From a phage: a stretch of 49,697 nucleotides of DNA. The translations under genes and the position numbers were made by a program. The stretch is taken from the NCBI GenBank assembly GCA_026165385.1, contig GCA_026165385.1_4524.2. One strand, 5' to 3'. The notes beneath the pieces are model-generated. The model was not told the DNA's origin. It searched no databases and saw only the letters and a program-made list of their open reading frames with translations. Of the stretch, positions 242 through 14,703 are shown piece after piece (the first letter of the stretch is position 1; each line of letters opens with the position of its first letter).

Positions 242-529
242 ATGAAAACCTATAAAGAATTTATATCACCTGTTGCTAACGTTTCTACTCTGACCGAAGC
301 ATCCCTTACTTCTGAAGTTATTAAAACAAATAAAGGACGTGAGGGTAAACCAATGATTAGTCTGGTTGACGGTGAAGAAGTAAAAGGTACTGTTTACTTA
401 GGGGATGGATGGTCTGCTAAGAAAGATGGCGCTACTATTGTTATCTCTCCAGCTGAAGAGACTGCACTGTTTAAAGCTAAGCATATTTCTGTAGCTCAGC
501 TTAAAATTATTGCAAAAACTCTTCTGTAA
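242..529 (+). CDS. Internal protein-like (capsid-targeted, injected) protein, 95 aa
   Basis: N-terminus MKTYKEFI resembles the T4 internal-protein capsid targeting sequence MKTYQEFIAE; L-T-E protease-type site at residues 17-19; SD AAGGAAA upstream. Confidence 0.7.
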   Translation: MKTYKEFISPVANVSTLTEASLTSEVIKTNKGREGKPMISLVDGEEVKGTVYLGDGWSAKKDGATIVISPAEETALFKAKHISVAQLKIIAKTLL

Positions 530-2936: not shown

Positions 2937-3401
2937 ATGAAATCATACGCTGAATTTTTGACTGAACAATCTAGTTCAGATGTAAAAGCCGCTGCGATTG
3001 CAGCAATTCAAGCAGGTAAATATTCTTACAAAGACGCCTCCGATGAAGAACGTTTCCGTTTTATTAGAGATTTTAAAGCCGAAGGTTTTACTAATGCTAA
3101 TACTGTTAGCCGAGTTTTTAAAAGCCTAGCTGCATCAGGTGAATTGTTCCAGAAAGCTACAGGTAAAGCACCTGTGCCAAAAGCGGACCATAAAACAGCT
3201 CAAGAAAAAAATATCGCCAAAGGAATTATTTCTAAGTATGAAGCAATTCTTAAAGAGCTTTTAGTAATCAAAACAGAAGGCCAGAAACTGGCACGAGCAC
3301 ATAGTTTCAAAGATAATCCTCACGCTCATAGCCTTGAGTATGTTGAAGATATCCAAAAACTTATTAAAGACCGCATTTGGTCTGCTAAACAAATCAAATA
3401 A
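2937..3401 (+). CDS. Internal protein-like (capsid-targeted) protein, 154 aa
   Basis: N-terminus MKSYAEFLTE matches the capsid targeting sequence pattern with an L-x-E cleavage-type site; SD AGGAAAAG upstream. Confidence 0.7.
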   Translation: MKSYAEFLTEQSSSDVKAAAIAAIQAGKYSYKDASDEERFRFIRDFKAEGFTNANTVSRVFKSLAASGELFQKATGKAPVPKADHKTAQEKNIAKGIISKYEAILKELLVIKTEGQKLARAHSFKDNPHAHSLEYVEDIQKLIKDRIWSAKQIK

Positions 3402-3436: not shown

Positions 3437-3523
3437 AGTTTGAATCGCTCGGAGAATGCTGTTACATATAACAATGTGATAAATAATTAATAACCAACCG
3501 ATAAATTATTTCAAGGATTTTAA

Positions 3524-4087
3524 ATGAAAACCTACGCCGAATTTTTAACCGAAGCAGCAAAATTACCATCTGAAGCAGATCTTACTAAAGTATTCTTCCA
3601 CTTAGACCCAAAAGATCGTGGCGATTTTCTTAAATGGAAAGCTAAAGCTATTGAAATGTATAACATCGATACTAGTTCTTTTACGATGAGTCAAGAAAAT
3701 AGTTTCAATAAAGCGTTTTTCAAAATTTCTAAGAAACTGGCATCTAGCACGCAGGTTCCTAAATCCGCCTTAGCTACTCCTGAACGTGCACCTGTTAAAA
3801 TTTCTAAGAATATGTTTGACACTAAAAAATATGTCAATGCTTTGAATAAAGCTCTTGACGCATTGGATGATGCAAAGAAGGCAGCCCGTGATCTTCAAGA
3901 CGTGTACACTGATTTTGATCGTAAAACTAAAGGTTCTATTTCAAATAGCGAACGCAATAGTGTAAGTGTTTATTCTGATAGCCTTGATGTTCTTGGCGAT
4001 GCGTATACTGAAATTAAAAATCGTATTAACACTGCATCTAAGCTAAAAGCTGCTGCCGAAGCTATAATAACTAAACTAGGTAAATAA
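3524..4087 (+). CDS. Internal protein-like (capsid-targeted) protein, 187 aa
   Basis: N-terminus MKTYAEFLTE matches the capsid targeting sequence pattern; SD AAGGA upstream. Confidence 0.7.
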   Translation: MKTYAEFLTEAAKLPSEADLTKVFFHLDPKDRGDFLKWKAKAIEMYNIDTSSFTMSQENSFNKAFFKISKKLASSTQVPKSALATPERAPVKISKNMFDTKKYVNALNKALDALDDAKKAARDLQDVYTDFDRKTKGSISNSERNSVSVYSDSLDVLGDAYTEIKNRINTASKLKAAAEAIITKLGK

Positions 4088-11257: not shown

Positions 11258-11716
11258 ATGATGAGTAAGAAAAATAAAGTGAAAGAACTATCAGCCGGTA
11301 TTATTTTCCTTACCGAAGATAAAGAATTATTCATGGGGCGTGTAACTGGTTCTCGTCCTAAAGGTTCTTTAGCTCATCGGTGGGATATTCCTAAAGGACG
11401 TGTCGAGCCCGGTGAATCTCCTATCGAAGCCGCTATTCGTGAATGCGAAGAAGAAACTGGGTTTACACAATATGACCCTGCCTTCCTGAAAGACCTAGGT
11501 GAACATCATTACTCAGATAATAAGAATATTCATCTGTTCCTATATACCATCCCTGTAGAGCACGAGCAATTCAGAAACAGTGTTTGTAATTCCTATCATA
11601 CATTCCCAGACGGACGACAGATTCCTGAATTTGATGCATTCGCTTTAATTAAACCTTCTCAATGGGAATATGTAATGGGTAAATCATTATATAAGGTGCT
11701 CACTACCCTCCTATAA
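11258..11716 (+). CDS. nudE: Nudix hydrolase (T4 NudE / e.1-like)
   Basis: Nudix box GRVEPGESPIEAAIRECEEETGF; lies immediately upstream of lysozyme as in T4. Confidence 0.85.
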   Translation: MMSKKNKVKELSAGIIFLTEDKELFMGRVTGSRPKGSLAHRWDIPKGRVEPGESPIEAAIRECEEETGFTQYDPAFLKDLGEHHYSDNKNIHLFLYTIPVEHEQFRNSVCNSYHTFPDGRQIPEFDAFALIKPSQWEYVMGKSLYKVLTTLL

Positions 11717-11750
11717 GTAATAAATACCTCCTATAAACGTGGGAGGTATT

Positions 11751-12239
11751 ATGAATATATTTGAAATGCTTCGTAATGACGAAGGTCTTAGACTGACTTT
11801 ATACAAAGACACCGAAGGCTTTTGGACGATTGGCATAGGCCATTTAGTAACAAAGAACCCGTCTTTAGCCGTAGCTAAAGCTGAACTTGACAGAATGATC
11901 GGACGTAAATGCAACGGTACAATTACCCTTGATGAGGCTGAAAAGCTATTTAATGAAGACGTTGATAAAGCCGTTCGCGGAATCTTGGGTAATGCTAAAC
12001 TTAAACCGGTATATGATTCTTTAGATGCAGTTCGTCGATGTGCATTGGTCAATATGGTCTTCCAAATGGGTGTAGCAGGCGTCGCCGGTTTTACTAATTC
12101 TCTTCGTATGCTTCAACAGAAACGTTGGGATGAAGCGGCAGTAAATCTAGCCCAATCTAAATGGTATCGTCAGACACCTAATCGCGCGAAACGCGTAATC
12201 TCAACATTTAAAACAGGAACTTGGAAAGCGTATATATGA
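11751..12239 (+). CDS. e: Endolysin (T4 lysozyme e, muramidase)
   Basis: 162 aa starting [32 protein letters not shown], near-identical to T4 lysozyme including catalytic Glu11/Asp20 context; SD GGGAGG. Confidence 0.95.
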
Positions 12240-12517
12240 AAACATATAGTGAATTTTTATCAGAATCTATTCTTAACGAAGCTACTGACACATTTGCAAC
12301 TAAGCTAGGTGCAGCTTTGGTTGAAGCCGAAAGTCTATTAGCACGTATTTCTGAACTTGCTAGTAAGATAGATACTCGCAAATTTGAACGTACCAGCGAT
12401 ATCGCTAAGCTTGAAGCCTTGTTGCGTATGTGCGATAAACCGGAAGAAATCGCTAAGAACGGCTCGCTAATGAAACAACGTCTTGAAAAATATATTTCAG
12501 GCGCTTCAGAAAAATAG
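12236..12517 (+). CDS. Internal protein-like (capsid-targeted) protein, 93 aa
   Basis: N-terminus [10 protein letters not shown]; ATGA overlap with the lysozyme stop; position matches T4 ipII/ipIII between e and denV. Confidence 0.7.
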
Positions 12518-12518
12518 T

Positions 12519-12574
12519 GTTTACTTCCTCCAAGGTCTTTGATACTATATACATTCATCAACTACTTGGAGGAA
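12519..12574 (+). promoter_or_regulatory. Early promoter with 10-bp inverted repeat whose 3' arm contains the SD
   Basis: GTTTAC 12519-12524; TTCCTCCAAG (12525-12534) / CTTGGAGGAA (12565-12574); -10-like GATACTATAT between the arms. Confidence 0.5.
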
Positions 12575-12577
12575 ATT

Positions 12578-12991
12578 ATGACCCGTATCAATTTAACACT
12601 TGTTTCTGAACTGACCGACCAACATCTTATGGCTGAGTATCGTGAATTACCACGCGTATTTGGTGCAGTCCGTAAACATGTTCAAAACGGTAAACGTGTA
12701 AAGGATTTTAAAATCTCTCCAACATTTATCTTAGGCACAGGTCACGTAACATTCTTTTACGACAAACTCGAATTTTTACGTTTACGTCAAATCGAGCTAA
12801 TCGCTGAATGTTTGAAACGTGGTTTCAAAATCAAGGACACGACAGTCCAGGATATTTCCGACATCCCTGCCGAATTTCGTAATAATTATGTCCCGTCCGA
12901 AGCGTCCATTGCGATAAGTCAAGCACGCTTAGATGAAAAAATTGCTCAACGTCCGACTTGGTACAAATACTATGGTAAATCAATTTACTAA
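12578..12991 (+). CDS. denV: Endonuclease V (pyrimidine-dimer DNA glycosylase)
   Basis: 137 aa starting [29 protein letters not shown], near-identical to T4 DenV. Confidence 0.95.
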
Positions 12992-12997
12992 GGAAAA

Positions 12998-13258
12998 ATG
13001 AAAATGTATCAAGAATTTATCGCTGAAGCAGTTGCCAAAGGTCCTAAATTTAAAGTTAAAGCTTTCGTTGGTGATGCCGAAGACTTTGGCTCATTAAAAC
13101 GTAACGGGTATTCTTTCTTAGGTGGCGATGGTAAAGAAATCAACACCTATGCAAAACGTAGTGAAATTGCTTATGTTGTAGCAAGTCCTAAAGTAGATGT
13201 TGACGATATTGGATACGATTTTAACAACGTCGGAATTATTTCTGGCGGTAAAGCTTAA
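12998..13258 (+). CDS. Internal protein-like (capsid-targeted) protein, 86 aa
   Basis: N-terminus MKMYQEFIAEA, almost the canonical capsid targeting sequence; SD AAGGAAAAA. Confidence 0.7.
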   Translation: MKMYQEFIAEAVAKGPKFKVKAFVGDAEDFGSLKRNGYSFLGGDGKEINTYAKRSEIAYVVASPKVDVDDIGYDFNNVGIISGGKA

Positions 13259-13261
13259 ATT

Positions 13262-13291
13262 GTTTACGCTTAAGTATTAATATGGTATAAT
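13262..13291 (+). promoter_or_regulatory. Early promoter (strong consensus)
   Basis: GTTTAC 13262-13267 and extended -10 TGGTATAAT 13283-13291. Confidence 0.55.
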
Positions 13292-13321
13292 TACTCTATC
13301 AAAACAAACAAGGAAACAAAA

Positions 13322-13636
13322 ATGAAAACGTATAAAGAATTTATTGCAGAATCCGCCAACCAACGCGTTGAAGGTGGTTATATTTGGATTGAACAAGTTG
13401 AGCCACCGAGCCGCACTTCTACAGGTAAATGGAAAATTACTGTTGATGGTCCTGGCGGTAAACGTAGGACTCTTAAAGAAATTAATGGGTACTACGAAGA
13501 AGCTCTTTCGGATGCAGGAACTTACATGATGCAAATCATGATTAAAAACCCTGAAAACCGTTTTGCAGCTAAAGTCTTCCGCCGTATTGGTAATAAACTT
13601 TATGATGCATACTCTAAAAACTTCCCTAAAGAATAA
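13322..13636 (+). CDS. Internal protein-like (capsid-targeted) protein, 104 aa
   Basis: N-terminus MKTYKEFIAES; SD AAGGAAA. Confidence 0.7.
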   Translation: MKTYKEFIAESANQRVEGGYIWIEQVEPPSRTSTGKWKITVDGPGGKRRTLKEINGYYEEALSDAGTYMMQIMIKNPENRFAAKVFRRIGNKLYDAYSKNFPKE

Positions 13637-13661
13637 CATAAATTAAAACAATAGGAACAAA

Positions 13662-13991
13662 ATGAAAACATATCAAGAGTTTATCACTGAAGTTACATTA
13701 TCTGCGGAACAGAAAGCTGCTATCGAAGAAGGTAAAAATCCCAAAGTAACATATAAAGTAAATAGTAAAGGCGTTTTTGATGGCTTGGTTCAAGACCCTG
13801 AATTGAAAAAAGCTCTTTCTAAAACTAATGCGTACTTTGCTCCTAAATTTAACACAGCCGGTGTACTTATTGGATTGGATGTATTCAACTCTAAAGGTGT
13901 TCTATCTAATGCCTTTGGTTATGCCGCTAACAAAATTACCAAAGCCGCATGGGAATCCAATACCAAACAAGCTCAAAAGCCTAGAGTATAA
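13662..13991 (+). CDS. Internal protein-like (capsid-targeted) protein, 109 aa
   Basis: N-terminus MKTYQEFITEV; SD-like TAGGAACAAA. Confidence 0.7.
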   Translation: MKTYQEFITEVTLSAEQKAAIEEGKNPKVTYKVNSKGVFDGLVQDPELKKALSKTNAYFAPKFNTAGVLIGLDVFNSKGVLSNAFGYAANKITKAAWESNTKQAQKPRV

Positions 13992-14163
13992 TTCTTGTCT
14001 AATAAAGGGAAACGCAACCTCTCCTTATGAACGTCGAGTCCTCTGAGTGATGTACCTTTTCCAACCTGTAATAAGGTCGAGCGCAATGCGGTAATGGGTT
14101 TACATAGCGAGTCTAAGGACCTAACATGTGCCATGGAATGGCCCAAACCTTAAGAGAAATAAT

Positions 14164-14703
14164 ATGAGAACATTTTTAACTGGTCCTTATCTATCCCTGA
14201 TGAATGCTTTTACACACCATTCTGATGCTAGAGTAGAAGAAATTTGTAAGAACGGTTATGTCCCACCATTTGAAGACGTACTCAAGCAGTACTGTACACT
14301 TCGTTTAGACGGTGGCAGACAATCAGGTAAATCAATTGCTGTGACTAACTTTGCTGCTAATTGGCTGTATGATGGTGGAACAGTTATTGTTCTTTCTAAT
14401 ACTTCAGCTTATTCTAAAATTTCTGCTGGCAACATTAAAAAAGAATTTTCTCGTTATTCTAGCGACGATATTCGATTCCGTTTATTTACTGATTCTGTTC
14501 GTAGTTTTATTGGCAATGAAGGTTCTAAATTCCGTGGATTAACGCTTTCTCGTATTCTGTATATAATTGACGAGCCTATTAAAGCTCCTGATATGGATAA
14601 GATTTACGACATCCATATTAAAACAGTCCAACACTGTTGCAAAAGCAAATATTGCATCGGCGGTAATGCTCGTCCTCAATTTTTTGTGATTGGAATGCAA
14701 TGA
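14164..14703 (+). CDS. P-loop NTPase-like protein, 179 aa
   Basis: ATG at 14164 after SD AAGAGAAA; Walker A-like DGGRQSGKS and Walker B-like ILYIIDEP. Confidence 0.55.
   Translation: MRTFLTGPYLSLMNAFTHHSDARVEEICKNGYVPPFEDVLKQYCTLRLDGGRQSGKSIAVTNFAANWLYDGGTVIVLSNTSAYSKISAGNIKKEFSRYSSDDIRFRLFTDSVRSFIGNEGSKFRGLTLSRILYIIDEPIKAPDMDKIYDIHIKTVQHCCKSKYCIGGNARPQFFVIGMQ

Follow-up and report, generated by a model that had tools for sequence, protein, structure and literature searches.

Candidate injected inhibitors of host nucleases among the probable internal-protein genes around denV in a Mosigvirus-type T-even phage

The closest described counterparts of the genes considered here are those of the internal proteins (Ips) of phage T4, IPI, IPII and IPIII, each of which is present in about 360-370 copies per head (PMC9026906). 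The first ten residues of IPIII, constituting the capsid targeting sequence (CTS), are enough for packaging, and mutants of this protein have assigned positions 4 and 7 to targeting and positions 8 and 10 to cleavage by the prohead protease, gene product (gp) 21 (PMC9026906). Each of the T4 proteins Ip1, Ip2 and Ip3 has its own target among the GmrSD type IV nucleases, and cross-protection is not seen (Silas et al. 2025, PMC12373910), while IPIII is needed on the strain ECOR17 and is active on host expression even if the CTS is missing (Srikant et al. 2022, PMC9391042). Another CTS-bearing protein, Bas37_0260, inhibits McrBC (HIDEN-SEQ preprint, bioRxiv 10.1101/2025.11.20.689424). The present analysis concerns four CTS-bearing genes that surround denV in a phage DNA stretch of 49,697 nucleotides (nt) (contig GCA_026165385.1_4524.2 of the NCBI GenBank assembly GCA_026165385.1), hereafter the window; coordinates are positions in the whole window throughout, except where the compared stretch of another genome is named. 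The interpretation of such genes as Ip genes is not new, the gene class having been known since 1994 and its principle being established. Ip10 of phage Pol, to which one of the four genes corresponds, reportedly received its name in 1994 (Repoila et al.). No reported function of Ip10 was found in the literature.

Four open reading frames (ORFs) led by a CTS, all on the + strand, were identified around denV at 12236-12517, 12998-13258, 13322-13636 and 13662-13991, and their translations confirm the T4-type leader that a sequence-only reading of the window had noticed at these four starts. That reading had counted seven such genes in the window, and a six-frame scan recovered the additional three at 242, 2937 and 3524. 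Against the seven ORFs with the CTS motif on the + strand, 200 shuffles of the sequence gave 0.16 on average and never more than 2. The 30-nt stretches that encode the CTS are identical between copies at only 17-26 of the 30 positions, and the leader is therefore conserved as protein. A GGA-type ribosome-binding site precedes every one of the four Ip genes. The genes of this part of the window follow one another as nudE, e, Ip, denV, Ip, Ip, Ip, vs.8, with e, denV, vs.8 and the Ip genes on the + strand. The upstream border of this interval is the endolysin gene e (11751..12239), recognised by the Pfam Phage_lysozyme model and by the RB69 annotation, and the downstream border is vs.8 (14164..14703, start approximate), with 89% identity to T4 Vs.8; denV, the pyrimidine-dimer glycosylase gene (12578..12991), lies inside the interval and matches Pfam Pyr_excise with E = 3.4e-14 and T4 DenV with 91% identity. 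The closest relatives of the stretch 11700-14200 are RB69 and its Mosigvirus kin, at 98.0-98.7% identity, the best match being GADS24. The RB69 counterparts of the genes at 12236, 12998, 13322 and 13662 are RB69ORF127c, 125c, 124c and 123c, respectively, all of which are hypothetical in GenBank, while RefSeq labels 127c and 125c as "internal head protein"; no mention of RB69ORF123c-127c was found in the literature. The four genes are very probably Ip genes of a Mosigvirus (an RB69-like T-even phage), situated in the Ip hotspot between e, denV and vs.8.

The residues M1, K2, Y4, E6 and F7 of the CTS (compare MKTYQEFIAE) are present in all four leaders, and the (L/I)-x-E motif for gp21 at positions 8-10 reads L-S-E in the product of 12236, I-A-E in those of 12998 and 13322 and I-T-E in that of 13662. 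A survey of 23 CTS proteins from ten loci showed M1, K2 and F7 to be invariant, Y4 to be present in 22 and E6, I/L8 and E10 in 21 each. Genes 67 and 68, for gp67 and gp68 of the prohead core, and gene 21, for the gp21 protease, are present in RB69 (about 98% identity over the stretch); they lie outside the window here.

The gene at 12236..12517 encodes a protein of 93 amino acids (aa) of the RB69ORF127c family, which matches phrog_3499, 'internal head protein', with E = 2e-46, shows 99% identity to RB69 127c across the mature part and carries a second possible gp21 site at L13-N14-E15. The ATG of this gene and the stop codon of e share nucleotides (ATGA), in RB69 as well, which suggests translational coupling to e, a gene translated late in T4. 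The family occurs in about 240 Mosigvirus-type records at more than 90% identity, and homologs of about 47% identity are found in about 260 records, those sampled being Tequatrovirus-type phages; the homolog of Tequatrovirus G9062 (47% identity) is placed at the 57B/ipI locus, next to 57B. The gene at 12998..13258, encoding the 86-aa member of the RB69ORF125c family with the CTS MKMYQEFIAE, starts 6 nt past the stop of denV and matches phrog_2667, 'internal head protein', with E = 1.7e-19. Matches to it were obtained in 218 phage records, with relatives in Gaprivervirus and Gelderlandvirus, and the exact allele was not found in a collection of 15 billion proteins.

The 104-aa product of 13322..13636, with the CTS MKTYKEFIAE, is identified by sequence similarity as an Ip10 ortholog: it aligns with Ip10 of phage Pol (CAA84455) over 97 residues at 95% identity (E = 7e-69), falls into the same 90% identity cluster and has 71% identity to the annotated Ip10 of Shigella phage SP18. 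It presents no material difference from the Ip10 proteins of Pol and SP18, and the SP18 gene also stands right after denV. The mature part of Ip10 was modelled by AlphaFold2 with a beta-beta-alpha-beta-alpha layout at a predicted local distance difference test score (pLDDT) of 69. The rarest of the four is the gene at 13662..13991, encoding the 109-aa member of the RB69ORF123c family with the CTS MKTYQEFITE, for which 91 phage records gave a match. An exhaustive HMMER search among 1.84 billion representative proteins returned as its credible relatives only its own cluster and one protein of 119 aa; a 119-aa gene of the Dhakavirus ESCO10 has about 32% identity to it. All members of the cluster are named 'hypothetical', and no source gives a functional name. 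The HMMER output for the mature 13662 protein also contained long repeat proteins, an MBG_2 adhesin among them, which were rejected as summed repeats without Pfam confirmation. The exact proteins of 12236, 13322 and 13662 were present on 220, 218 and 108 contigs, respectively. None of the four proteins matched Pfam (even at E <= 10) or NCBIfam.

Trimmed of their CTS, the seven proteins of the window gave no significant BLASTP pair, the best E value being 0.039 in a database of the seven sequences. PHROGs groups the products of 13322 and 13662 in phrog_3966, and kinship between them was not supported by a profile-profile comparison of the trimmed families (hhalign, probability 0.13%) or by BLAST; the co-membership probably reflects the CTS that both carry. 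The homolog searches were word-indexed and retrieved 2-10 close relatives per protein, which makes for shallow alignments, and at this depth the earlier statement that the four proteins are unrelated past the first ten residues holds both in BLASTP and in the profile comparison.

Comparison of the interval across T-even phages shows a conserved Ip hotspot in which the set of CTS genes between e and vs.8 differs from phage to phage, as emerged from the comparison of Ip loci in related phages that had been proposed as a check. The two genes that the sequence-only reading had placed between e and denV in T4 are correct, the order in this Tequatrovirus being e, ipIII, ipII, denV, vs.8, with no Ip gene after denV. 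Both T4 genes thus precede denV, whereas the window has one upstream and three downstream, an arrangement it has in common with RB69. The Gaprivervirus SP18 has no Ip gene between e and denV and three after denV (Ip10, a 125c-like gene and a 99-aa gene), the Karamvirus CC31 has one on each side and the Dhakavirus ESCO10 none before and two after. The Mosigvirus PhAPEC2 has one 127c-like Ip gene before denV, followed after denV by a 38-aa remnant of 125c and by an IpIII with 92% identity to that of T4. The locus is without denV in the Gelderlandvirus STML-198, with two Ip genes in the interval, and in the Tequatrovirus FelixPlatter, with a 157-aa Ip and an Ip10 that is 98% identical to the product of 13322. 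The 23 surveyed CTS proteins fall into 14 families without cross-similarity. Within Mosigvirus, the genes at 12236, 12998, 13322 and 13662 are found in roughly 240, 175, 130 and 77 records, respectively; coverage of the four-gene stretch reaches 80% or more in only 71 records.

The CTS genes of ESCO10 (OM386655, 3447-4114 of the compared stretch) are labelled 'RNA polymerase ADP-ribosylase' and 'RNA polymerase-ADP-ribosyltransferase', and the neighbouring early genes are labelled baseplate proteins, so that the annotation of this region looks unreliable. The leader of the first of these CTS genes, MKTYKQFITE, has Q at position 6.

The ratio of non-synonymous to synonymous substitution rates (dN/dS) lies below 1 in every pairwise Ip comparison, at 0.03-0.5, and this purifying selection indicates that the four families are real genes. 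The flanking genes e, denV and vs.8 have ratios of 0.07-0.12 in the pairs with enough substitutions, and conservation within the Ip families is somewhat looser than in these housekeeping neighbours. Between the window and FelixPlatter, Ip10 differs at 1.5% of non-synonymous and 39% of synonymous sites (dN/dS 0.028), and IpIII of PhAPEC2 and T4 has a dS of 0.35, against 1.2 for the neighbouring e genes. The near identity of IpIII of PhAPEC2 and Ip10 of FelixPlatter to their counterparts in other genera, together with the lower dS of IpIII than of e, shows that the cassettes cross genus borders. The locus diversifies as whole cassettes, all led by the constant CTS, are gained, lost, exchanged or left to decay. 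The description of these proteins as rapidly diversifying is therefore apt for the locus, where cassettes turn over, and fails within the families, which evolve under purifying selection.

Decay is seen in the RB69 reference (NC_004928), where three of the four genes are altered relative to the window. In ORF127c (2037-2318 of the compared stretch), a pair of -1 and +1 frameshifts scrambles CTS residues 5-12 (MKTYMNFYQNLSLNE), and Y4, F7 and the L-N-E15 site are kept despite it. ORF124c (3121-3393 of the compared stretch) has an extra G, by which the last 21 residues are replaced by 7 and the protein is shortened to 90 aa from 104, and ORF123c (3462-3791 of the compared stretch) carries E10A in the cleavage motif. 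These alterations represent either decay in a laboratory strain or sequencing errors of the 2003 era. In several Mosigvirus genomes, the gene corresponding to 12998 (125c) is reduced to a remnant by an in-frame internal deletion, that of PhAPEC2 (2456-2572 of the compared stretch) encoding 38 aa with the CTS and the C-terminus kept; PHROGs files such remnants separately as phrog_35655.

By analogy with the T4 proteins, the four proteins are probably packaged by means of their CTS and injected as inhibitors of specific type IV nucleases of the GmrSD or McrBC kind. The ten-residue CTS would bind each protein to the scaffolding core and so build it into the prohead, where cleavage by gp21 after (I/L)-x-E10 would release the mature protein, 76-99 residues long, within the head. 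Ejected into the cell along with the DNA, in many copies from every head, each protein would then, before any phage gene expression, bind and block one specific host nuclease of a class that attacks DNA with sugar-modified hydroxymethylcytosine (hmC), a type IV enzyme such as GmrSD or McrBC. The set would be kept varied by the swapping of whole cassettes behind the constant CTS and not by fast sequence change. The earlier suggestion of injected anti-defence factors is supported by the CTS residues, by the location in the slot that holds the T4 genes, by the identity of one protein as Ip10 and by the published results on the T4 Ips, from which the packaging, injection and anti-defence activity of the four proteins are inferred. 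T4 IPII and IPIII resemble the four in the e-denV-vs.8 slot, the ten-residue CTS, the (I/L)-x-E site, the small size and in being non-essential, and the route of packaging and injection is presumably shared. The injected GmrSD inhibitor IPI* of T4 (PDB 2jub) follows the same packaging principle and has a true homolog in the window at 242-529. Bas37_0260, from the ipI locus, has the same build as the Ips of the window, with a CTS in front of a small mature domain of unrelated sequence.

Transcription of the four genes at the time of head assembly is plausible from the sequence. Two near-consensus late-promoter motifs, TATAAGTA and AATAAATA, lie on the + strand at 11712..11726 as one-mismatch boxes at the position of T4 TATAAATA upstream of e, and these putative promoters are the likely source of late transcripts through the Ip genes. 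No terminator-like site was found on the + strand within the interval. In T4, TATAAATA occurs twice upstream of e, with no copy directly before ipIII or ipII. A strong sigma-70 promoter-like site of the T4 early type, GTTTACG-17-TATAAT (+ strand, 13263..13291), which matches at 10 of 12 positions, has a TG extension and is identical in RB69, stands upstream of the Ip10 gene. Ip10 and the product of the next gene are thus likely to be made early also, and not for packaging alone.

Several observations weigh against injected inhibitors of type IV nucleases. No canonical late promoter (TATAAATA) was found adjoining any of the four Ip genes, so that late expression must start from the near-consensus boxes upstream of e, and, given the early-type site, some Ip10 may do its work after synthesis in the infected cell instead of arriving by injection. 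The three altered genes of RB69 imply that these genes are dispensable on laboratory hosts. A literature search found neither virion proteomics or genetics for the four proteins nor a Mosigvirus virion proteome that lists them. The mature product of 12236 has an isoelectric point (pI) of 6.3 and is not basic. The Ip10 model gave no fold match, the model of the 12998 product, at a pLDDT of 43, offers no usable prediction, and structure prediction provided no functional clue for the proteins. The four mature domains showed no likeness to Ip1, Ip2, Ip3 or Bas37_0260-type proteins by BLAST or Pfam, and hence targets cannot be transferred by homology. In particular, IPII and IPIII have mature domains with no detectable similarity to the four, and Ip2 and Ip3 have known GmrSD targets (PMC12373910), whereas the four in the window carry none assigned. 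In G9062, the gene that matches Bas37_0260 in size and position encodes a protein without similarity to any of the seven window proteins. The four therefore stand outside the sequence families of the known inhibitors, and may act similarly.

This distance from the known GmrSD and McrBC inhibitors also favours, among the alternatives, the one in which the proteins are injected anti-defence factors and at least one of them targets a system other than type IV, be it another DNA-sensing or early-acting defence or an enzyme specific for arabinosyl-hmC. Mosigvirus DNA carries arabinose and not glucose, and that of RB69, which contains arabinosyl-hmC, is cut by GmrSD enzymes (PMC6024577). A further hint comes from bas37_0261, which by its size and position in the HIDEN-SEQ annotation table corresponds to the Tequatrovirus homolog of 12236 (G9062 2471-2728 of the compared stretch). 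Mutants of this gene are depleted about 4-fold (log2 fold change -2.09, adjusted p ~0) in the first host comparison of the supplement, which is read as K-12 versus CFT073 from the order of the tables, and are not depleted (-0.01) in the comparison with CFE299 (bioRxiv 10.1101/2025.11.20.689424 supplement). The alternative is nevertheless unlikely, since type IV enzymes are what all the CTS proteins with a target assigned so far (Ip1, Ip2, Ip3 and Bas37_0260) inhibit. Depletion extends to the gene upstream, bas37_0262 (-1.56); neither result is discussed in the preprint, and bas37_0261 has no target assigned there. An equation of the 12236 family with the McrBC inhibitor Bas37_0260 itself was considered and rejected, as the gene sizes in Bas37 match the neighbouring bas37_0261 instead.

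The broader proposition that at least one of the four targets something beyond the GmrSD and McrBC variants described so far is put forward tentatively and with some doubt. The holders of such a target would most likely be the orphan family of 13662 (RB69ORF123c) and the 12236 family, and the target could be a nuclease specific for arabinosyl-hmC DNA or, as the depletion of bas37_0261 hints, some other early-acting defence found in uropathogenic E. coli.

In another alternative, the proteins are packaged through the CTS and act mainly in the head, in charge neutralisation of the DNA, its condensation or ejection, or the assembly of the core and head. The mature products other than that of 12236 are basic, with pI values of 8.2-9.7, the T4 Ips are abundant and basic and contact DNA phosphates, and IPIII mutants are slower at head assembly (PMC3012670; PMC9026906). 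That 14 unrelated folds should fill a single generic physical role, with a presence or absence that varies from strain to strain, fits poorly with a structural function; all three T4 Ips, moreover, have specific nuclease targets (PMC12373910), and host-expressed IPIII functions even when it lacks the CTS (PMC9391042). A principal function in the head is accordingly judged quite improbable. Decay or loss of function in some of the four, to the point that their CTS would not bring about packaging any more, as the frameshifted 127c and 124c and the E10A of 123c in RB69 and the 38-aa 125c remnants of PhAPEC2 and others might suggest, is hardly credible for the window, in which all four genes are full length with the CTS and cleavage motif intact, three of the exact proteins recur on more than a hundred contigs each and dN/dS is well below 1.

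If injected inhibition of host nucleases is the function of the four proteins, their significance lies in the proteins as candidates and not in a new concept, because the principle is established. A new target, if confirmed, would add both an inhibitor fold and an inhibitor-target pair to those known. Injected proteins act ahead of phage gene expression and thereby help to set the host range of a T-even phage on wild strains. Phages of the genus Mosigvirus are frequent in therapeutic and biocontrol collections, and, because their DNA carries arabinose, the restricting enzymes and the protective inhibitors may differ from the T4 examples. The locus offers four or more candidates for the type of screen that yielded the targets of T4 Ip2 and Ip3, and the natural variants of the CTS leader could be used in protein-packaging applications.

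The other three CTS genes of the window, also on the + strand, lie outside the e-denV-vs.8 interval; T-even genomes have another Ip hotspot at 57B-ipI-tRNA. The gene at 242..529, in a second Ip locus, encodes a homolog of IPI, with residues 20-95 matching both Pfam IPI_T4 (E = 2.6e-49) and PDB 2jub (E = 7e-41). Its CTS, MKTYKEFISP, has P and not E at position 10, and a second site is present at L17-T18-E19. Since position 10 is P and the match to the mature domain begins at residue 20, the functional cleavage is predicted at the downstream L17-T18-E19 site, as expected from the 76-residue IPI*. The ORFs at 2937..3401 (154 aa; phrog_2280, all names 'hypothetical') and 3524..4087 (187 aa; phrog_2280, 'unknown function') lie 3' of the genes for tRNA-Met and tRNA-Arg (2035-2189), and no source names either an internal protein. 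The mature parts of these two, grouped together in phrog_2280, show weak BLAST similarity (E = 0.07). The exact 187-aa product of 3524-4087 is recorded as EKD0951373.1 (locus tag OQ351_002372) in an NCBI assembly labelled 'Escherichia coli', by which the window appears to be a phage contig that was deposited with a bacterial isolate. The family of the 3524 ORF also occurs in Tequatrovirus, for example as RB14ORF136.

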